Counted from the first letter of the stretch, positions 6,325 through 24,218 are shown. The stretch: 24,962 bases of DNA from Deltaproteobacteria bacterium (GCA_026129065.1 JAHCIV010000002.1:64001-88962); one strand, 5' to 3'. Numbers and translations are program-made. The notes: a model not told the origin generated them from the letters alone.

Positions 6325-7182
6325 CTAGATCTCGAGCTCTTCGCCCTCGCGCGCGGGGACGAGGCCGATGGCGGCGCCGCCGCGCGCGTCGAGGGTGGCG
6401 CGGCAGCTCGCGAGGAGCTCGTCGACGTCGGCGTCGCTGTAGTCCTGGTCGTAGTGGAACATGACCAGCTTGCCGACGCGGGCGGCGATCGCGGCGTCGG
6501 CGGCGTCCTCGTAGGAGGAGAAGCCGCGGTTGCGGCGCGTGGCCTGGTCCTCGGGGCGGTAGGTGGTGTCGTGGAGGAGGACGTCGGCGCCCTGGTAGAA
6601 GGCGATGGCGTCGGGGTGCGGTGGGGCGCCGGCGTCGGGCTGGCCGACGTCGGAGGCGTAGACGAACGTGCGGGTGCCGTCATCGATGCGGAAGGCGAGG
6701 GCGGTGGCGCTGCCGTGCGGGTGCTCGCGGCAGGTGACGCGCAGGCCCTCGGCGTCGAACGGCAGGCCGCAGCGCACGGCGCGCACGTCGAACGTGGCCG
6801 AGAAGTTCTTGAGCGTCTGCAGCGGCGAGAAGTTGGGATCCATCTGGCCCTCGAGGATGCCCTCGAGCACCTCGGGCGAGCCGCCGGGGCCCCAGACCGT
6901 GAACTGGTTGCCGGCGACGAACACGGGCGGGAAGAAGCCGAGGCCCTGGATGTGGTCCCAGTGGGTGTGCGAGAGCAGGATCGACGCGCGGCCCTGGCCC
7001 TTGCCGAACGCGCCGGTCATGAGGTGGTTGCCGAGGTGCATGAGCCCGGTGCCCATGTCGATCACGACGAGCCCGCCGGTTCGGGTCTCGACGGAGACGC
7101 ACGACGTGTTGCCGCCGTAGCGGATCGTGTCGGGCCCCGGCGCGGGGATCGAGCCGCGCACGCCCCAGAAGCGAATCTTCAC
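6325..7182 (-). CDS. MBL-fold metallo-hydrolase, paralog A (285 aa, GTG start)
   Basis: This is the C-terminal part of track ORF 6325..8136. The protein starts VKIRFWGVRGSIPAPG and carries the HxHxDH motif (LSHTHWDHIQG). The GTG start at 7180-7182 overlaps the stop of paralog B (7179-7181), a GTGA overlap. The upstream part of the 603-aa track ORF is Arg/Pro-rich junk antisense to paralog B. Confidence 0.65.
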   Translation of the reverse strand: MKIRFWGVRGSIPAPGPDTIRYGGNTSCVSVETRTGGLVVIDMGTGLMHLGNHLMTGAFGKGQGRASILLSHTHWDHIQGLGFFPPVFVAGNQFTVWGPGGSPEVLEGILEGQMDPNFSPLQTLKNFSATFDVRAVRCGLPFDAEGLRVTCREHPHGSATALAFRIDDGTRTFVYASDVGQPDAGAPPHPDAIAFYQGADVLLHDTTYRPEDQATRRNRGFSSYEDAADAAIAARVGKLVMFHYDQDYSDADVDELLASCRATLDARGGAAIGLVPAREGEELEI

Positions 7183-8193: not shown

Positions 8194-8661
8194 CTAGAAC
8201 CCCTTGCGCGAATCTAGAAGGATCGTCACGGGCCCATCGTTGACGAGCTCGACCGCCATATCCGCGGCGAACTCGCCGGCTTCGACGCGCACGACACCGG
8301 CGGCGCGCAACCCGGCGAGCGCCTGCTCGCACAGCATCTTGGCCGCGACCGGTTCGAGCGCGCCGGTGAACGCCGGTCGGCGCCCCTGACGCGCGTCGCC
8401 ATACAGCGTGAACTGCGACACGAGGAGCACGCCGCCGCCGACGTCGAGGACGCTGCGATTCATCTTGTTTGCGTCGTCGGCGAAGATCCGGAGGTTCGCG
8501 ATCTTGTCGACGATGTAGGCCAGGTCGGTCGCGGTGTCCCCGGCGCCCGCGCCGAGGAGGACCATGAGGCCGCGCTCGATGACGCCGGTCACGCGCTCGC
8601 CACCGTCCGCATCGCGCACGGTGACGCGTGCCCTCGTGACTCGCTGGACGACCGCGCGCAT
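8194..8661 (-). CDS. dtd: D-aminoacyl-tRNA deacylase
   Basis: MRAVVQRVTRARVTV...GLMVLLG...KIANLRIF...KMNRSVLDVGGGVLLVSQFTLYGD...GRRPAFTGA...NDGPVTILLD are canonical Dtd motifs (SQFTL, NDGPVT). I prefer the internal Met at 8661 over the track start at 8700. Confidence 0.85.
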   Translation of the reverse strand: MRAVVQRVTRARVTVRDADGGERVTGVIERGLMVLLGAGAGDTATDLAYIVDKIANLRIFADDANKMNRSVLDVGGGVLLVSQFTLYGDARQGRRPAFTGALEPVAAKMLCEQALAGLRAAGVVRVEAGEFAADMAVELVNDGPVTILLDSRKGF

Positions 8662-8729
8662 GCCCGTTCGATACCACGACTTTTCCGGGCAACCCCGCAC
8701 GCTTGCTGGTGGTCTGATCGACCGCTAGG

Positions 8730-18195: not shown

Positions 18196-18870
18196 GTGCC
18201 AGGCGCCGTCGTCCTCCTCTCGGGAGGTCTCGATTCCACCACCGTCCTCGCGATCGCGCGGTCGGAGGGTTACACGTGCCACGCGCTGACCGTGCGCTAC
18301 GGGCAGCTCCACGAGGTCGAGCTCGCCGCGGCGCGGCGCGCGGCCGCCGCGCTCGGGGCCGCCGAGCACCGGGTGATCGACCTCGACCTCACGCAGCTCG
18401 CGCCGTCGGCGCTGACGGCCCGCGACATCGCCGTGCCGAAGGACCGCTCGCTCGCCGAGATCGGCGCTCCCGGCGACGTGCCGGCGACGTACGTGCCGGC
18501 GCGCAACACGGTGCTGCTCGCCCTCGCGCTCGCATGGGCCGAGTCGCTCTCGGCGCGCGACATCTTCGTCGGGGTCAACGTCCTCGACGCGAGCGGCTAT
18601 CCGGACTGCCGTCCGGAGTTCGTGCGCGCGTTCGAGGCGCTCGCGCAGGTCGCGACGCGCACCGGCGGCTTCTGCATCCACGCGCCGCTGATCGCGCTCG
18701 ACAAGGCCGGGATCATCCGGCGCGGGCTCGAGCTCGGCGTCGACTACGGCGCGACGCACTCCTGCTACGACCCCGTCGGGGACCTCGCGTGCGGCCGGTG
18801 CGACGCGTGCGCGCTGCGCCGGAAGGGGTTCGCCGAGGCGGGCGTTCCGGATCCCACGCGCTACGCCTGA
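18196..18870 (+). CDS. queC: 7-cyano-7-deazaguanine synthase
   Basis: It has the PP-loop [11 protein letters not shown] and the C-terminal zinc-binding Cys cluster [16 protein letters not shown], with QueC length (224 aa). Confidence 0.9.
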
Positions 18871-18896: not shown

Positions 18897-20183
18897 GTGC
18901 CCGGCGACAGCCTCGACAACCTCGACGACTTCCTCGCGTTCCTGCACGCCTCGCCGACGCCGTTCCACGCGGTCGTCGAGGCGCGCCGCCGCCTCGAGGC
19001 GGCGGGCTTCCGCGCGCTCGGCGAGGCCGATGCGTGGGACGGCCTCGCGCCCGGCCGCTACCACGTCACGACGAGCGAGACGAACCTCATCGCGTTCGTC
19101 CTGCCGCCCGGCGCCGAGGGGCGCACGCGCTACCGCATCGTCGGCGCGCACACGGACAGCCCGAACCTGCGCCTGAAGCCGCATGCCGAGTACACGTCCG
19201 AGGGGTACGCGCAGCTCGGCGTCGAGGTCTACGGCGGGGCGCTGCTCAACTCGTGGCTCGACCGCGACCTCGGCATCGCCGGCCGCGTGATCGTGCGCGA
19301 GGGTGACAAGGAGGGCGAGGGCTTCGCGAGCCATCTGGTGCGCCTCGACAGGCCGCTCGTGCGCGTGCCGCAGCTCGCGATCCACCTCGACCGCGAGGTC
19401 AACGAGAAGGGGCTCGTGCTCGACCGCCAGAACCACCTCGCGCCGGTGTGGGGGCTCGCCGGCGGGCCAGCGCTGTCGCAGCTCGTCGCCGACGCGATCG
19501 GCGTCGCGCCCGACCGCATCGCGGCGAGCGACCTCATGCTCCACGACGCGGTGGCGCCGGCGATCGGCGGCGCGTCGAACGAGCTCCTGTTCTCGGCCCG
19601 CCTCGACAACCTCGCGATGTGCCACGCCTCGATCACGGCGCTCGCCGCCGCCGCGCCGGGCGCGCAGTCGATCGCCGTCGTGGCGCTGTTCGATCACGAG
19701 GAGGTCGGCAGCAACAGCGCCGCCGGCGCGGGGAGCTCGACGCTGCCGCGCATGCTCGAGCGCCTGGTGCCGTCGCGCGAGGCGTTCCACCAGGCGTGCG
19801 CGCGCTCGACCTGCGTGTCGGCGGACATGTCCCACGCCGTGCACCCGAACTATGCGAGCCGGCACGAGCCGCGGCACAAGCCCGTCCTCAACGGCGGCCC
19901 GGTGATCAAGACGAACACGCAGCAGCGCTACGCGACGAACGCGGCGACGGCGGCGATGTTCGCGCGCCTGTGCCGCGACGAGGACGTGCCGGTGCAGCAC
20001 TACGCGCACCGCACCGACCTGCCCTGCGGCAGCACGATCGGCCCGATCACGTCGACGCTCCTCGGCATCCCCACCGTCGACGTCGGCAACCCGATGCTGT
20101 CGATGCACTCGGCGCGCGAGATGGCGGGGACGCGCGACCCGGCGCTCATGAACCGCGTCCTCGCCCGCTACCTGCGCAGCTGA
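18897..20183 (+). CDS. M18-family aminopeptidase (aspartyl aminopeptidase-like)
   Basis: Signatures ...RIVGAHTDSPNLRLKP..., ...LFDHEEVGS... and ...HSAREMAG... are characteristic of M18/ApeB aminopeptidases. The ORF is 428 aa. Confidence 0.85.
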   Translation: MPGDSLDNLDDFLAFLHASPTPFHAVVEARRRLEAAGFRALGEADAWDGLAPGRYHVTTSETNLIAFVLPPGAEGRTRYRIVGAHTDSPNLRLKPHAEYTSEGYAQLGVEVYGGALLNSWLDRDLGIAGRVIVREGDKEGEGFASHLVRLDRPLVRVPQLAIHLDREVNEKGLVLDRQNHLAPVWGLAGGPALSQLVADAIGVAPDRIAASDLMLHDAVAPAIGGASNELLFSARLDNLAMCHASITALAAAAPGAQSIAVVALFDHEEVGSNSAAGAGSSTLPRMLERLVPSREAFHQACARSTCVSADMSHAVHPNYASRHEPRHKPVLNGGPVIKTNTQQRYATNAATAAMFARLCRDEDVPVQHYAHRTDLPCGSTIGPITSTLLGIPTVDVGNPMLSMHSAREMAGTRDPALMNRVLARYLRS

Positions 20184-20220
20184 TCGCGCTCGCGCCCCGC
20201 CGTAGTATGCTGCGCCCGCG

Positions 20221-21375
20221 ATGAAGCTCGGCACGCTGCTCCTGCGCAACGCGGCGATCGGGCTGTCGCAGCTCGAGAGCGCGCTGCGCAACCAGGTGCT
20301 GTACGGCGGCCGCCTCGGCACGAACCTCGTCGAGCTCGGCTTCATCGACCTCGAGCTGCTGTCGGCGTACCTCGCCGAGCTGTCGGGCTACCCGATCGCG
20401 ACGCCGACGCTGCTCGACGAGGTCGACGCGTCGCTCCTCGAGAAGCTCGGCGCCGACGACGCCCACGCGCTGCGCGCGATCCCGCTCGGCAGGCTGGCGG
20501 CCGGCGACGGCGCGCCGCCGCAGGTGGCCGTGGCGATGGTCGAGCCGACGCGCGCCGAGTCGCTCGAGATCCTGCGGGCGCGGTTCGACGCACAGGTCGT
20601 GCCGTACGTCGTCCCCGAGCTGCGCGCGCTGTACTACCTGGAGAAGCACTTCGGCCTGCCGCGCCGCGCGCGCTTCATCCGGTCGGCGCGGCCGGGCGGC
20701 GAGTGCGCGCGAGCGGCCTGCCGTCCCGGCGGTGGCGTCCGCCGGCGCGGGCGCGGCCACCCCGGCGGAGCGCGCAAGTCGCAGCCGCTGCAGGGGATGG
20801 TGATGCCGCCGGCGTTCACGCTCGAGCCGCGCCGCCGCCGCGCGTCGCAGGTGCCGGCCGTGCCGGGCGTGCCGATCACGGCGACGTACACGGCGACGTG
20901 CGACGCGATCGACACGGCGACGCACCGCGACCAGATCGGCGAGGCGCTCGTCCACTACGCGAAGGGCCGCGTCGACGCGCTCGTCCTGTTCCTCATCCGC
21001 GACGGCAACGCGCTCGGCTGGGGCGGCTACGTCGCGGGCGGCGCGCCGCGGACGCCGATCGAGGAGATCTCGCTGCCGCTCGGCGGCGCCTCGTCGCTGC
21101 AGTCGGCGCACGACGCCGGCCAGCCGTTCGTCGGCCCGCCCCCGTCGGCGGCGCGCCCCGTCGAGACGAAGCTGTGGCAGGCGCTCGGCACCACCCCCGA
21201 GCCGGGCATCGTGATCGTCGTGCCGGTCATGGTGCGCCAGCGCTCCGTCAACCTGATCTACGCGCACCCCATCCCGGGGGCGTCGCCGACGGCGCAGCTC
21301 GTCCACGAGCTCAACGACCTCGCGAACCGGGCGCAGACCGCGTACCTGCGCCTGATCCGTCAAGCGCGCGGATAA
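20221..21375 (+). CDS. Hypothetical protein with an N-terminal T2SS GspE-N-like (T2SSE_N) domain
   Basis: The N-terminal ~140 aa (MKLGTLLLRNAAIGLSQLESALRNQVLYGGRLGTNLVELGFIDLELLSAYL...) matches the GspE/PilB N-terminal domain pattern common in myxobacterial standalone proteins. This is followed by an Arg/Gly-rich linker and an unassigned C-terminal domain. Confidence 0.5.
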   Translation: MKLGTLLLRNAAIGLSQLESALRNQVLYGGRLGTNLVELGFIDLELLSAYLAELSGYPIATPTLLDEVDASLLEKLGADDAHALRAIPLGRLAAGDGAPPQVAVAMVEPTRAESLEILRARFDAQVVPYVVPELRALYYLEKHFGLPRRARFIRSARPGGECARAACRPGGGVRRRGRGHPGGARKSQPLQGMVMPPAFTLEPRRRRASQVPAVPGVPITATYTATCDAIDTATHRDQIGEALVHYAKGRVDALVLFLIRDGNALGWGGYVAGGAPRTPIEEISLPLGGASSLQSAHDAGQPFVGPPPSAARPVETKLWQALGTTPEPGIVIVVPVMVRQRSVNLIYAHPIPGASPTAQLVHELNDLANRAQTAYLRLIRQARG

Positions 21376-21495
21376 TTCGACATGCCGCCGGCGGAGTGAT
21401 CGTCCGGTCACGATGCACGCAGGGTCCACTCGATCGGTCGCGAGCGACGTCCTCGTCGATCGAGCACGAGCACGAGTACGATCTGGAGACGCGAG

Positions 21496-22335
21496 ATGCA
21501 CGAGGCCATCCACAAGTACCCGCGGACGCACCACCTCGAGGGCAGCCGGTTGCAGCCGGGCGACCACGACCTGGCGCAGGTCCCGCTCGCGTCGCTGCGC
21601 GGGCGGTACTGCGTCGTCGAGGAGAAGCTCGACGGGGCGAACGCGGGGCTATCGCTCGACGAGCGCGGCCGGCTGCGGCTGCAGAGCCGCGGGCACGTGC
21701 TGAGCGGCGGGCCGCGCGAGCGCCACTGGGACCTGTTCAAGCAGTGGGCGCGGGCCCACGAGACGGCGCTCGCGGAGCGGCTCGCGGCCCACCCGGGAGG
21801 CCTCACGATCTACGGCGAGTGGCTCTACGCGAAGCACACGGTGTTCTACGACCAGCTGCCGCACTACTTCATGGAGTTCGACATCCGCGACGCGGCCGGC
21901 GCGTTCTGGTCGACGGCGCGGCGCGCGGAGCACCTGGCGGCGGCGCCGATCGTGGCGGTCCCGGTCGTGTGGGAGGGCGTCGTCGAGGACCCGCGCGACC
22001 TGCCGGAGCTGGTCGCGCCGTCGCTGTACAAGTCGGCGCGCTGGCGCGAGGCGCTGCGCGACGCGGCGGTCGAGGGCGGCGTCGAGCCGGAGCGCTGCGC
22101 GCGCGAGACCGATGCGTCGGATCACGCCGAGGGGCTGTACGTGAAGGTCGAGGACCGCGCGACCGGGACGGTCGTCGGGCGCTACAAGTGGATCCGGCCG
22201 TCGTTCCACCAGGCGATCCAGGAGGCCGGCGACCACTGGCTGCAGCGGCCGATCGTCGCGAACCGGCTGGCCGAGGGCGTCGACCTGTTCGCGTCGCCCG
22301 GATCGGAAGGATCGGAAGGATCGGAAGCGCCGTGA
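21496..22335 (+). CDS. ATP-dependent RNA/polynucleotide ligase, minimal nucleotidyltransferase-domain type (Rnl-family)
   Basis: The N-terminal KYPRTHHL box is typical of the RNA_ligase family. Motif I is VVEEKLDGAN, with the predicted adenylylated Lys at nt 21625-21627. Motif IV is EGLYVKVED and motif V-like is GRYKWIRPSF. The C-terminus is a (GSE)3 repeat. Confidence 0.75.
   Translation: MHEAIHKYPRTHHLEGSRLQPGDHDLAQVPLASLRGRYCVVEEKLDGANAGLSLDERGRLRLQSRGHVLSGGPRERHWDLFKQWARAHETALAERLAAHPGGLTIYGEWLYAKHTVFYDQLPHYFMEFDIRDAAGAFWSTARRAEHLAAAPIVAVPVVWEGVVEDPRDLPELVAPSLYKSARWREALRDAAVEGGVEPERCARETDASDHAEGLYVKVEDRATGTVVGRYKWIRPSFHQAIQEAGDHWLQRPIVANRLAEGVDLFASPGSEGSEGSEAP
22300..22326 (+). repeat. 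Perfect 3 x 9-bp tandem repeat (ggatcggaa)3 encoding (GSE)3 at the ligase C-terminus
   Basis: Read directly: ggatcggaa ggatcggaa ggatcggaa, ending 6 nt before the ligase stop / HD-Pnk start. Confidence 0.9.
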
Positions 22336-23504
22336 CGCTCCCCGACCTGGCGCCCGGCGCGGCGATCGACTGGGCGGCCGTCGAGGCGTGGCTCGCGCCG
22401 ATCGCGCCGGCGGCCGAGCTGGCGGCGACGCCGCAGGACCACGCGTTCCACGCCGAGGGCGACGTGTGGACGCACACGAGGATGGCCGTCGAGGCGCTCG
22501 TCGCGCAGCCGGCGTACGCCGCCGCGGATCCGGTCGCCCGCGGGATCCTCGCGGCGGCGGTCCTGCTCCACGACGTCGGCAAGCCGAGCACCACGCGCGT
22601 CGTCCCCCAGGAAGGCGGGGAGCGGATCACGTCGCGCGGGCACTCGGCGCGCGGCGAGGGGCTGGCGCGGGTGGCGCTGTGGCGCGCCGGCGTGCCGTTC
22701 GGGGTCCGCGAGCACGTGTGCGCGCTCGTCCGCTACCACCAGGTGCCGTTCTTCGGGATCACGCGCGAGCCGCGTGAGGCCGAGCGGCTCGCGCTCCGCC
22801 TGTCGCTGATCCTGCGCCACGACTGGCTGACCGCGGTCGCCGAGGCCGACGGGCGCGGCCGGCGCTGCGCCGACCCGGCGGACCAGGTGCGCATCGTCGA
22901 CCACTGCGGCCTGTGGGCGGAGCACTGCCGGGAGCACGGCGTCCTCGCCACGGCGCGCGCGTTCGCGACGCCCCACACGCGCCGGGTGTGGTGCGAGTCC
23001 GAGGCGCCGCGGTCGCCGGACGTGCCGGCCCACGACGACACGACCTGCGAGGTCACGCTGATGTGCGGGCTGCCGGCGGCCGGCAAGGACTCGTGGCTGC
23101 GGGCGAACGCGCCCGAGCTGCCGGTGATCTCGCTCGACGCCGTCCGCGACGAGCTCGACGTCGAGCCGGGCGACAGCCGCGGCGAGGTCATCGCGCTCGC
23201 CCGCGAGCGGGCCCGCGAGATGCTGCGCGCCGGGACGTCGTTCGCGTGGAATGCCACGAACTTGTCGCGCGACCTGCGCGCCCAGCTGCTCGGCTTCTTC
23301 CGCTCGTACCGGGCGCGCACGCGCATCGTCTACTGCGAGGCCACGGCCGCCGACCAGCACGGACGCAACCGGCAGCGCGACGCGATCGTGCCGGCGCGGG
23401 TCATCGATCGCATGCTCGAGCGCTGGACGGTCCCGGATCCGACCGAGGCCCACGCGGTCCTGTACGTCACTCCCGGCGACGCGAGCTGGCCACCTACATC
23501 GTAG
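22332..23504 (+). CDS. Bifunctional HD-domain 2',3'-phosphoesterase / P-loop 5'-OH polynucleotide kinase (HD-Pnk-like RNA end-healing enzyme)
   Basis: The GTG start overlaps the ligase stop (GTGA at 22332-22335). It is in frame with the C-terminal third of track ORF 20703..23504. The N-terminal HD domain has H...HD motifs (DHAFHAEGDVWTHT; LLHDVGKP at nt 22563). The C-terminal kinase has the P-loop VTLMCGLPAAGKDS (nt 23067) and the Pnk-type RxxxR element (FRSYRARTR). Confidence 0.75.
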   Translation: MTLPDLAPGAAIDWAAVEAWLAPIAPAAELAATPQDHAFHAEGDVWTHTRMAVEALVAQPAYAAADPVARGILAAAVLLHDVGKPSTTRVVPQEGGERITSRGHSARGEGLARVALWRAGVPFGVREHVCALVRYHQVPFFGITREPREAERLALRLSLILRHDWLTAVAEADGRGRRCADPADQVRIVDHCGLWAEHCREHGVLATARAFATPHTRRVWCESEAPRSPDVPAHDDTTCEVTLMCGLPAAGKDSWLRANAPELPVISLDAVRDELDVEPGDSRGEVIALARERAREMLRAGTSFAWNATNLSRDLRAQLLGFFRSYRARTRIVYCEATAADQHGRNRQRDAIVPARVIDRMLERWTVPDPTEAHAVLYVTPGDASWPPTS

Positions 23505-23771
23505 TTGGCGGCACGAAGCAGGTCGGTGGTCAAGTTGTTTCGACCGGCAAAAGCGCAGTTAGATCGATGAAATCACAGCAGAACTTGGGCACCATCGACA
23601 GGCGGGACGGTAACTTGACTGGCGCCGCCAAAGAGGGATGCTGCCCTCGTGCCCGAACGAATCAGCCTTCCGAATCAGACCTGCGCCAAGGTCGGTTTCG
23701 GAACCATCGCCGCCGCGCTCGCTGCTCTCTCCATGGCCATCCTCGGCCATTTCTTCATCTAGGCCTTCTGA

Positions 23772-24218
23772 CTAGGCCTGCTCGCTCCAGTAGCGGACCC
23801 AGTCTCCATCTGCGATCAGCGTGCCGAGCTTGATCGCCGCCGGGTCGGCCAGCGTGTAGATCCACGTCCACACCTCCTCGCCGGTGTCGGTCGTGACCTG
23901 CGCGATCACCCGTGCGAAGTCCTCGCCCTCGTACGCGTCGAGCAGCCCGAACGTGGCCGCCAGGTTGTCGAGCCAGAGGATCTCGCCCACGACGCTGCCG
24001 GCGCCGTCCTCGACGAAGCCGGGATAGCCCATCGGAAACGCGTAGATCTGGCCGGGCACCCGGGCCGGGACGCAGCGCAGGATCGAGCTCGCCACGAGCG
24101 AGCGCGCCGTCTGGCCCCGGCGCAGGGTCCCGTAGACGAACAGCCGGTCGAGGATCTCGTGCGACCCGGTCGTGCGTTCGACCTCGAAGCTGCCCGTCGA
24201 CCGCCGCCGCTGCGTCAC
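23772..24218 (-). CDS. Gamma-glutamyl cyclotransferase-like (GGCT/AIG2-family) protein
   Basis: The LFVYGTLRRG motif followed by ...YAFPMGYPGFVEDG...VVGEILWL... matches the GGCT-like fold. I propose the GTG at 24216-24218 as the start. The upstream remainder of track ORF 23772..24950 is an alternate frame of the CobT-like gene. Confidence 0.55.
   Translation of the reverse strand: MTQRRRSTGSFEVERTTGSHEILDRLFVYGTLRRGQTARSLVASSILRCVPARVPGQIYAFPMGYPGFVEDGAGSVVGEILWLDNLAATFGLLDAYEGEDFARVIAQVTTDTGEEVWTWIYTLADPAAIKLGTLIADGDWVRYWSEQA

Follow-up and report, generated by a model that had tools for sequence, protein, structure and literature searches.

The gene pair at positions 21496 to 23504 of the DNA analysed here (24,962 nucleotides of a Deltaproteobacteria bacterium, GCA_026129065.1 JAHCIV010000002.1:64001-88962, hereafter the window, to which all positions refer) raises the question of whether two adjoining genes work together to repair broken nucleic-acid ends by healing and sealing, and whether such ends would be RNA or DNA. 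A preliminary description regarded the locus as a complete RNA healing and sealing cassette, composed of an RNA ligase and a fusion of an HD domain with a polynucleotide kinase. The gene pair and its domains stand. The sealing part was overstated, as the two tested partner ligases joined neither RNA nor DNA alone (PMC6097658; PMC1997131) and DNA is a candidate substrate as well.

Both genes are located on the (+) strand. ORF1, the ligase gene, extends from an ATG at 21496 to a TGA at 22335 (279 aa), and is followed by ORF2, the HD-Pnk gene, which begins with a GTG at 22332 and ends at 23504 (390 aa). They are translationally coupled, since in the sequence GCGCCGTGACG the GTG start and the TGA stop share 4 nt, GTGA (22332-22335, +), exactly as the preliminary description had it. 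The GTG start is supported by the same start in the NCBI-annotated, 99%-identical protein P0001, by the N-terminus of the ORF2 product, which is kept among homologues, and by the recurrence of a 4-nt [A/G]TGA overlap in 14 related genome loci, one of them from Acidobacteriota (12 of the loci are distinct; L001 and L002 share one contig region). A lookup of the exact HD-Pnk sequence of the window found no record, and P0001 served in its place. The overlap suggests that the two proteins may be co-expressed stoichiometrically, and its conservation is a testable hint that ligase and HD-Pnk act as a complex.

A Shine-Dalgarno-like GGAGA (21485-21489, +), read from the sequence, is placed 6 nt 5' of the ligase ATG. 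A perfect 9-bp tandem repeat, GGATCGGAA x3.1 (22300-22327, +; TRF score 56, 100% matches), codes for the C-terminal (GSE)3 tail of the ligase while also giving GGAAGG/GGAAG Shine-Dalgarno-like sequences 5' of the HD-Pnk start; in strain L001 (~99% identical) the unit is present four times, and neither the frame nor the GTGA overlap is disturbed. The promoter scan found no sigma-70-like promoter in 20100-24000, and the Rfam and tRNA scans found no RNA genes in the window. Between the HD-Pnk gene and the convergent GGACT gene, a consensus scan indicated a weak terminator-like hairpin (23733-23750, +), which alone is not significant (1 site found versus 0.5 expected by chance).

The ORF1 product is a minimal ATP-dependent RNA-ligase-type nucleotidyltransferase, 100% identical to the NCBI 'RNA ligase family protein' P0121. 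Its match to the Pfam model PF09414 (RNA_ligase; E 1.4e-31) spans 2-171 of the 171 model positions. Motif I, K44-L-D-G-A-N49 (21625-21642, +), is invariant in 36 homologues and contains K44, the predicted AMP-accepting lysine, which aligns with K40 of DR_B0100 from Deinococcus radiodurans. In a local hhalign comparison of the ligase family with T4 Rnl2, which is weak (E 0.12) and aligned only motifs I and Ia, motif I corresponds to K35/N40 of Rnl2. Motif III, Y106-G-E108-W (21811-21822, +), is invariant and lies inside the full-length PF09414 match, and the motif IIIa residues F125/D129 are invariant among the ligase homologues. The same applies to E212, G213, L214, Y215 and K217 of motif IV, E212-G-L-Y-V-K217 (22129-22146, +), and to R229, K231, W232 and R234 of the motif V region, R229-Y-K231-W-I-R234 (22180-22197, +), K231 and R234 being kept across five phyla.

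The AF2 model of the ligase (pLDDT 81, pTM 0.83) was matched by Foldseek, with a probability of 1.00, to T4 Rnl2, Naegleria NgrRnl, TbREL1, Trl1-LIG, Rnl3 and Rnl1, the first four being the best matches (E 5e-7 to 1e-4), while DNA ligases appeared at E>=8e-4. As the TM-scores are 0.45-0.48 at 15-17% identity, the kinship to these fold neighbours is remote, and PDB sequence searches gave no match at E<=10, whether started from the single ligase sequence or from a profile of 36 sequences. The presence of motifs I, III, IIIa, IV and V, together with the fold, places the protein in the ATP-dependent RNA ligase superfamily (PF09414 branch), and the earlier assignment of an RNA ligase with a KxDG motif I is upheld.

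The ligase consists of a bare nucleotidyltransferase domain with neither an OB domain nor an Rnl2-type C-terminal domain; about 37 N-terminal and 45 C-terminal residues are located outside the core. The N-terminal KYPxxxHL and C-terminal HWxxxPxxxNxL elements are common to it and DR_B0100. Being a stand-alone domain encoded directly upstream of an HD-Pnk, by an overlapping ORF, it represents an HD-Pnk-associated minimal ligase. It belongs to a subclade distinct from DR_B0100, here called type A (a newly noted but minor point), which is well populated in Myxococcota, Acidobacteriota, Pseudomonadota and Cyanobacteriota. Type A is probably distinct from the Runella slithyformis enzyme too, as judged from a Cytophagales relative, Chondrinema: with no more than 24% identity between the Chondrinema and window ligases, the latter is placed in another subclade.

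ORF2 (22332-23504, +) encodes an HD-Pnk, in which an N-terminal HD phosphoesterase is fused to a C-terminal 5'-OH polynucleotide kinase (Pfam HD and AAA_33; AF2 model with pLDDT 93.8). The HD-superfamily domain, about residues 33-230 (22428-23021, +), has conserved His/Asp residues as candidate metal ligands (H48, H80-D81, H104, H136, D173). The Pfam model PF01966 matched residues 64-145 with E 5.2e-5 and 24.0 bits, barely over the cutoff of 22, which counts against the explanation proposed below. This weak hit is supported by a family profile, for which the Aquifex A-adding enzyme gave a match in its HD region (E 6.5e-6), and the fold of this half is closest to tRNA nucleotidyltransferase. 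The HD domain of the E. coli CCA enzyme is reported (Yakunin et al. 2004) to possess 2',3'-cyclic phosphodiesterase and phosphatase activity. For the window HD-Pnk we infer a phosphoesterase activity.

The kinase domain, about residues 238-380 (23043-23471, +), includes the P-loop G246-LPAAG-K252-D253, D269, R272, N307 and R345/R349, and its match to PF13671 (AAA_33; E 1.1e-22) covers residues 241-367. K252, D269, R272 and R345/R349 map onto CthPnk K21, D38, R41 and R116/R120, which corresponds to the P-loop lysine, the general-base aspartate, the substrate arginine and the RxxxR lid of such kinases, and the fold is closest to the polynucleotide kinases CthPnk, T4 Pnk and PNKP. Thus, the fusion of HD and kinase domains proposed earlier is confirmed by both Pfam models, and the motifs then named (KxDG, EGxxxK, P-loop and RxxxR) are all present: K44-L-D-G-A-N, E212-G-L-Y-V-K217, G246..G251-K252 and R345-N-R-Q-R349 are invariant or nearly so in the homologues. 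In the P-loop, Asp253 takes the place of the canonical Ser/Thr and is paired with Asn307. It seems that the metal-site carboxylate has been relocated in this kinase (GKD + NATN), which is again newly noted and minor. As the replacement is found throughout the family and N307 varies along with it, it is a weak argument against activity, and raises the side question of whether the metal or NTP-donor preference of the kinase has changed. Some HD-Pnk representatives of approximately 500 aa bear N-terminal extensions; we did not accept these as real, since they contain no extra Pfam domain and their starts are therefore probably miscalled.

The preliminary description called the system essentially unexplored, a view that does not survive comparison. 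HD-Pnk relatives form 472 clusters (50% identity) at E<=1e-30, there are precedents in D. radiodurans and Runella, and the ligase-then-HD-Pnk order is found in at least seven bacterial phyla (Myxococcota, Acidobacteriota, Pseudomonadota, Cyanobacteriota, Bacteroidota and Deinococcota among them), on plasmids and in one jumbo phage. As the derived patterns are clade-specific, the genome-collection scan reached Myxococcota and Acidobacteriota, and the other taxa come from plasmid and phage searches. The ligase gene is directly upstream of the HD-Pnk gene in 18 of the 22 genome loci with upstream sequence. It is also upstream in 10 of the 12 plasmid or phage loci, mostly adjoining, with one small gene or gap in between in three.

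The chromosomal neighbourhood (QueC, M18 peptidase, MshEN-like protein, GGACT and CobT) is kept in relatives, and the locus has a syntenic, housekeeping setting in Kofleriaceae-like Myxococcota, in agreement with the myxobacterial-type assignment made earlier. Neither the window nor the surrounding +/-10 kb of the 99%-identical sister contig was found to carry a gene for a nuclease, toxin, stress regulator or mobile element, which extends the earlier remark that a damaging nuclease is not visible. The upstream gene for the 384-aa MshEN-like protein was considered as a third component and rejected: it is absent beyond Kofleriaceae-like loci, other genes occupy its position elsewhere, and its presence is therefore a matter of lineage-specific synteny.

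We suggest, with a probability of about one half, that the pair is a co-translated two-gene module which heals and seals broken nucleic-acid ends, with RNA favoured as the substrate. The HD domain would convert 2',3'-cyclic-phosphate, 3'-phosphate or 2'-phosphate ends into 3'-OH with the use of a transition metal, and the P-loop kinase would phosphorylate 5'-OH ends with an NTP, D269 serving as the putative general base, R272 holding the terminal nucleotide and R345/R349 forming the lid. The ligase would form ligase-AMP from ATP on K44, pass the AMP to the new 5'-phosphate and catalyse the attack of the 3'-OH. Gene structure, domain identity, catalytic residues and conserved linkage are matters of observation, whereas we infer sealing and complex formation by the window pair. 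As the ligase has no domain beyond the nucleotidyltransferase and the relatives assayed so far were inactive by themselves, it probably has to form a complex with HD-Pnk or another partner in order to work, and such a dependence would account for the conserved start/stop overlap. The favoured substrate would be RNA, e.g. fragments of tRNA or rRNA left by transesterifying nucleases or by stress, because of the KxDGxN motif I, the RNA-ligase fold neighbours and the similarity of the HD half to tRNA CCA/A-adding enzymes. What speaks against RNA sealing is that neither the Runella nor the Deinococcus ligase worked on standard substrates and that no member of the family is known to seal RNA; in addition, the known in vivo phenotypes of the homologous operon concern ionising radiation, i.e. 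DNA damage. The lack of a linked nuclease, toxin or stress regulator, and of any PADLOC match, also counts against this explanation.

A more specific suggestion, which we put forward only tentatively and consider rather doubtful, is that the type A ligase is competent solely as a stoichiometric complex with HD-Pnk, the latter supplying the nucleic-acid-binding module. Such a complex may seal unconventional ends (broken tRNA loops or 2'-PO4/3'-OH), which were never offered in the Runella and Deinococcus assays. If true, this would explain a puzzle that has persisted since a 2007 report, namely that HD-Pnk-associated ligases adenylylate without ligating, and would define a new RNA-ligase clade. 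What the bare ligases join, and whether they need HD-Pnk to do so, is a question of the whole family and not of this locus. The type A ligase is a reasonable fresh candidate for biochemistry, as it is distinct from DR_B0100 and probably from the Runella enzyme, both of which failed in vitro.

The same biochemistry might have DNA as its physiological substrate, in which case 3'-phosphate/5'-OH breaks of oxidative or radiation origin would be cleaned and then resealed by the ligase, as back-up repair resembling the D. radiodurans ligB (DR_B0100-DR_B0098) operon; we consider this possible, but not probable. The homologous Deinococcus operon is radiation-induced, DR_B0098 (its HD-Pnk) is required for ionising-radiation resistance, and in vitro DNA ligation by DR_B0100 has been reported, only together with DR_B0098 and PprA (reviewed in PMC6300522). 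DR_B0098 is active as a 5'-kinase and accepts a DNA oligonucleotide with a 5'-OH end as substrate (PMC1997131). The kinase fold of the window protein is equally close to mammalian PNKP, a DNA-repair enzyme, and to RNA kinases, and the chromosomal housekeeping setting is also compatible with DNA repair. However, the ligase matches the RNA-ligase Pfam model, its RNA-ligase fold neighbours (E 5e-7) precede DNA ligases (E>=8e-4), and its motif I reads KxDGxN, where DNA ligases typically have KxDGxR. Moreover, DR_B0100 alone did no DNA ligation (PMC1997131), the window and Deinococcus pairs are only 28-32% identical, their ligases belong to different subclades, and the macro/PARG gene is absent between the window genes. 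It is unlikely that the ligase-like protein joins no strands at all and uses its lysyl-AMP for 5'-adenylylation or capping of HD-Pnk-made ends, or for another AMP acceptor, so that HD-Pnk would be the sole true repair activity. This idea derives from two independently studied homologues that self-adenylylate and ligated nothing tested: DR_B0100 is adenylylated on K40, the K40A mutant lost adenylylation, and the enzyme ligated neither DNA nor RNA (PMC1997131), while the Runella ligase forms ligase-AMP, yet joined no 3'-OH/5'-PO4 substrate tested (as described in PMC6097658). The window ligase, for its part, has none of the known accessory domains for step 2 and substrate binding, and sequence searches, the one with the family profile included, detect no PDB ligase. 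On the other hand, conservation is strict throughout motifs I to V and extends to the motif IV/V residues of the later ligation steps, DNA ligation was reported once partner proteins were added (PMC6300522), and the obligate pairing with an enzyme that makes ligatable 3'-OH and 5'-PO4 ends renders sealing the simplest explanation.

Still less credible, and in our opinion very unlikely, is a role in conflict, i.e. that the pair is a mobile counter-measure, not a housekeeping system, mending the cuts that ribotoxins, anticodon nucleases or abortive-infection systems make in RNA, in the manner of T4 Pnkp and Rnl1. Homologous pairs do occur on plasmids (one in P. aeruginosa is flanked by two IS21 copies) and, in one case, in a 462-kb phage genome, and a comparative-genomic study of jumbo phages interprets the kinases and phosphoesterases (occasionally HD) that accompany ATP-dependent RNA ligases as counter-defence (PMC7824862). 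Here and in related genomes, however, the pair is part of the conserved chromosomal neighbourhood described above, which has no toxin, nuclease or mobile-element gene nearby; GC content is unremarkable, and the PADLOC defence-system models gave no match for either protein at E<=0.01.

Compared with known end-repair systems, healing and sealing by the window pair would combine the same activities as T4 Pnkp with Rnl1/Rnl2, Pnkp-Hen1 and Pnkp1-Rnl-Hen1, that is a 5'-kinase, a 2',3'-phosphoesterase and an ATP-dependent ligase. The kinases of T4 Pnk, CthPnk and Pnkp1 share the fold and the catalytic Lys/Asp/Arg set with the window kinase, and the Rnl2 nucleotidyltransferase fold resembles the window ligase. 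In contrast, the T4 and Pnkp systems use a DxDxT acylphosphatase or calcineurin-type phosphoesterase instead of an HD domain, their domain order is opposite to that of the window HD-Pnk, and the Pnkp-Hen1 systems include a Hen1 methyltransferase, which the window lacks. Rnl1 to Rnl5 bear C-terminal or N-terminal accessory domains; neither the Rnl2 C-terminal domain nor the Rnl5 N-terminal OB-like domain is present in the window ligase, whose likeness to Rnl2/Rnl5 is confined to the nucleotidyltransferase and which belongs to neither group. Class II tRNA nucleotidyltransferases (CCA/A-adding) have an HD region similar to the HD half of the window protein, but the latter half is fused to a kinase and the protein is devoid of their polymerase-beta head domain.

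No Tpt1, MTase-HIT or macro/PARG domains were found among the window genes or within +/-10 kb of the sister contig, and the pair therefore differs from both the Runella four-gene and the Deinococcus three-gene cluster. In the D. radiodurans operon, DR_B0100 (LigB/DdrP) - DR_B0099 (PARG/macro) - DR_B0098 (HD-Pnk), a PF09414 ligase is likewise upstream of an HD + AAA_33 fusion, but the macro/PARG gene separates them, and the operon is plasmid-borne and radiation-induced, whereas the window pair is chromosomal. The window HD-Pnk is homologous to the experimentally characterised DR_B0098 over its full length (32% identity, residues 12-380, E 2e-27), and the ligase to DR_B0100 (28% identity, E 4e-11). 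DR_B0100 is shorter (210 aa) and without two helical inserts of the window ligase, and DR_B0098 has a canonical GKST P-loop and a DAT motif in place of GKD and NAT. The 3'-phosphatase signal of DR_B0098, which was contaminated, was not lowered in the H81A and D82E mutants (PMC1997131), a further point against the proposed healing by the HD domain.

The Runella precedent invoked earlier holds up. According to the description in PMC6097658, the Runella ligase ORF is directly upstream of, and overlaps, that of a bifunctional HD-Pnk with 2',3'-phosphoesterase and 5'-OH kinase functions, the domain order being HD-then-Pnk as in the window; genes for Tpt1 and MTase-HIT are part of the Runella cluster as well. 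The same pair occurs in Chondrinema, with an HD-Pnk 35-36% identical to that of the window. The window pair is thus an additional Myxococcota case (Kofleriaceae-like) of the cassette known from Runella and Deinococcus, a break-repair system that is widespread and of which little is understood.

The two ORFs of interest, both on the forward strand, comprise a ligase gene (ATG at 21496 to TGA at 22335, 279 aa) and a gene for HD-Pnk, an HD-polynucleotide kinase fusion (GTG at 22332 to 23504, 390 aa). The start codon of the second and the stop codon of the first overlap in a GTGA (22332-22335), and a Shine-Dalgarno-like GGAGA lies 6 nt upstream of the ligase start. As the G+C content of the window is high (~70-76%), long spurious ORFs are frequent; both ORFs are nevertheless real genes. 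Pfam analysis assigned the first to RNA_ligase (PF09414, E 1.4e-31, whole model covered) and the second to AAA_33 (PF13671, E 1.1e-22) and HD (PF01966, E 5.2e-5, barely over the gathering score). Together with the overlap, these matches to all three proposed families bear out the preliminary description of coupled genes for a ligase and an HD/kinase fusion. NCBIfam gave only weak matches for the pair, i.e. the HD part of CCA tRNA nucleotidyltransferase, PSTK and HDIG. In NCBI, an "RNA ligase family protein" is 100% identical to the ligase and an "AAA family ATPase" 99% identical to HD-Pnk, each from a Deltaproteobacteria MAG, and the nearest named relatives are Kofleriaceae and Haliangiales.

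Conservation of the ligase was scored over 36 homologues. The predicted Rnl-type motifs I (KxDG; K44-L-D-G-A-N49) and IV (EGxxxK; E212-G-L-Y-x-K217) were found and are invariant, as are S64-R65-G66, motif III (Y106-G-E-W), motif IIIa (F125-x-E-F-D129), R229-Y-K231-W-x-R234, and the N-terminal YPRTxHLxGSRxQxGDxD and C-terminal HWxxRPIxxNxL elements. The AF2 model (pLDDT 81, pTM 0.83) adopts a nucleotidyltransferase fold, whose top PDB neighbours are the RNA ligases T4 Rnl2, Naegleria Rnl, TbREL1, the Trl1 ligase domain, archaeal Rnl3 and T4 Rnl1 (E 5e-7 to 5e-4), with DNA ligases ranking after them (E >= 8e-4). Identity to the fold neighbours is only 15-17%, at TM-scores of ~0.47, and neither the ligase alone nor the family profile matched any PDB ligase by sequence. 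No OB domain, Rnl2-type C-terminal domain or Rnl5-type N-terminal domain was found in the protein, which is a minimal stand-alone adenylyltransferase-ligase domain. The 5' leader of its gene (21429-21464) carries an 8-bp perfect inverted repeat (CTCGATCG ... CGATCGAG), with arms 20 nt apart and an inner palindrome between them, a potential operator or RNA hairpin.

HD-Pnk was modelled confidently (pLDDT 93.8). Its C-terminal half is a polynucleotide kinase, with profile matches to PSTK (E 3e-8), Clostridium thermocellum Pnk (CthPnk, E 8e-6) and T4 Pnk (E 0.04). In a profile alignment, for which the CthPnk sequence was confirmed against 4gp7, K252 corresponds to CthPnk K21, D269 to the general base D38, R272 to R41, and R345/R349 to R116/R120, the last pair being the RxxxR element expected beside the HD domain and P-loop. 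In the HD half, H40, H48, H80-D81, K84, H104, H136, D173 and R177 are invariant among the aligned homologues; the related HD domain of the E. coli CCA-adding enzyme is a 2',3'-cyclic phosphodiesterase/phosphatase.

The P-loop lysine of HD-Pnk is followed by Asp253 (23088-23090), where Ser or Thr is usual, and Asn307 (23250-23252) occupies the Walker-B-like position of CthPnk D78 and T4 Pnk D85. Among 150 family representatives the two positions covary: D/N occurs in 99, S/D in 21, N/N in 10, T/D in five, S/N in four and D/D in none, and therefore the metal-site carboxylate appears either in the P-loop or at the classical position. We read the swap, from the alignment, as a probable relocation of this carboxylate with function retained. 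Homologues with the GKD + NATN form come from Myxococcota, Acidobacteriota, Cyanobacteriota and Bacteroidota; a Pseudomonas plasmid encodes a GKN + NST variant.

The pair belongs to a known and widespread cassette with precedents in Runella and Deinococcus, and the earlier view of a myxobacterial version as essentially unexplored makes it look newer than it is. HD-Pnk homologues were reportedly noted in 11 phyla, frequently with a ligase, in the 2017 Runella paper, and our scan of 1.84 billion cluster representatives gave 472 clusters of the family at E<=1e-30 and 1,365 at E<=1e-10. The HD-Pnk alignment retrieved 24 species-representative genome loci. The ligase lies immediately upstream of HD-Pnk in 18 of the 22 having upstream sequence; a small membrane-protein gene intervenes in two, and the ligase is elsewhere on the contig in one and absent from one. 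An (A/G)TGA overlap occurs in 14/25 loci, one of them from Acidobacteriota (12 distinct, homologous loci L001 and L002 being one and the same stretch of contig), and gaps of 3-17 nt in most of the others. The ligase has a (GSE)3 tail, encoded immediately 5' of the HD-Pnk start by a perfect 9-bp tandem repeat (GGATCGGAA x3, 22300-22327, forward strand). With four copies in a ~99% identical sister strain, the repeat is a copy-number polymorphism, and copy number alters the count of GGAAGG Shine-Dalgarno-like sites before the coupled start.

In plasmid and phage records, the ligase precedes HD-Pnk in 10/12 loci inspected; one locus is from a 462-kb phage, and the bacterial hosts are Chondrinema (Bacteroidota), P. 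aeruginosa, Variovorax (where one small ORF separates the genes), Ralstonia, Methylorubrum, Bosea, Proteus, Sphaerospermopsis (Cyanobacteriota) and D. radiodurans. A 291-kb P. aeruginosa plasmid carries the pair and three small hypothetical genes between two copies of one IS21 element (locus L027, 970-3257 and 7222-9509; identical IstA and IstB protein accessions), an arrangement like that of a composite transposon. Two distinct ligase subclades partner HD-Pnk (window 21496-22335 versus homologous loci L026, 5111-5911; L029, 3299-3931; and the phage locus L032, 4240-4932). Type A comprises the ligases of the window, Acidobacteriota, Pseudomonas, Variovorax, Ralstonia, Methylorubrum, Bosea and a cyanobacterium; direct comparison of four with the window ligase gave 48-54% identity. 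Type B (24-28% identical to it) comprises those of Chondrinema, Proteus and a jumbo phage, together with DR_B0100 of D. radiodurans. Published assays cover two of the ligases, DR_B0100 and that of Runella, which may likewise be type B, judging from the Cytophagales relative Chondrinema.

Around the pair lie ordinary genes, for polysaccharide biosynthesis, a metallo-beta-lactamase-fold protein, an ABC permease, a Rieske protein, peptidases of the M16 and M18 families, D-Tyr-tRNA deacylase (8194-8700), QueC (queuosine synthesis, 18196-18870, which is 2.6 kb upstream of the ligase gene) and, convergent downstream, GGACT and CobT. D-Tyr-tRNA deacylase and QueC are tRNA-related, with no evidence of a functional link to the cassette; tRNA and Rfam scans found no tRNA genes or Rfam RNAs in the window. 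Since the neighbours are ordinary, gene order is identical in the sister strain and G+C is unremarkable, the pair is chromosomal and vertically kept in this lineage; elsewhere the cassette is mobile. Just upstream of the ligase, a 384-aa protein (20221-21375) has a sub-threshold match to MshEN (T2SS-E N-terminal, c-di-GMP-binding type). Its gene precedes the ligase in many Kofleriaceae-like loci, and in one (L010) still adjoins it although HD-Pnk is 5 kb away; since the cassette lacks this gene in other phyla, the adjacency is probably lineage synteny. In an Acidobacteriota locus (L021), a SAM-dependent methyltransferase gene (6402-7166) stops 12 nt short of the ligase start and calls to mind the methyltransferase-HIT gene of the Runella cluster.

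Based on these observations, we suggest, with a probability of about 0.5, that the pair is a heal-and-seal module with RNA as its favoured substrate. HD-Pnk would convert 2',3'-cyclic-P or 3'-P to 3'-OH and 5'-OH to 5'-P, and the ligase would seal the healed ends by lysyl-AMP chemistry. Three features favour RNA: the ligase fold resembles that of RNA ligases, motif I has the KxDGxN form, and the HD half is like that of tRNA nucleotidyltransferases. We infer that the ligase depends on HD-Pnk, since it consists of a nucleotidyltransferase domain and nothing more, homologues assayed on their own were inactive, and the overlap recurs in different phyla. The preliminary identification is right at the level of domains, complete RNA repair having been demonstrated for no member of the family.

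A role in DNA repair, although less probable, is a serious rival, because the sole in vivo data on a homologous operon point to DNA-damage resistance: the D. radiodurans operon is radiation-induced, resistance to ionising radiation requires its HD-Pnk, DR_B0098, and the in vitro DNA-ligase activity of DR_B0100 required DR_B0098 and PprA (review PMC6300522). DR_B0100 self-adenylylates on K40 and joins neither DNA nor RNA, and DR_B0098 is a 5'-polynucleotide kinase whose phosphatase activity was left unresolved (PMC1997131). That the ligase acts in a non-sealing role is unlikely compared with either kind of repair, and a dedicated conflict role at the window locus is more doubtful still. PADLOC found nothing on the pair, and no Tpt1, HIT, macro, Hen1, RtcB, nuclease or toxin gene was found around it, in agreement with the earlier remark that no damaging nuclease is visible. 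An adjoining type B pair in a 462-kb uncultured phage (LR756500.1; locus L032, 4240-6014) is consistent with use of the cassette in phage counter-defence.

In the Runella slithyformis cluster described in PMC6097658, the ORF directly preceding HD-Pnk, and overlapping it, encodes a putative ATP-dependent ligase, which forms ligase-AMP but sealed none of the 3'-OH/5'-PO4 substrates tried; HD-Pnk is described there as both a 2',3'-phosphoesterase and a 5'-OH kinase. The cluster also holds Tpt1 and an MTase-HIT gene; in contrast, the window locus has neither Tpt1 nor HIT. The Deinococcus proteins share the Pfam architecture of the window pair and are full-length homologues of it (DR_B0098, E 2e-27; DR_B0100, E 4e-11, with K40 aligned to K44). 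Two modest additions are made here, namely the type A subclade of ligases and the carboxylate swap of the kinase; as regards the latter, DR_B0098 retains the classical form, whereas the window HD-Pnk has the swapped one.
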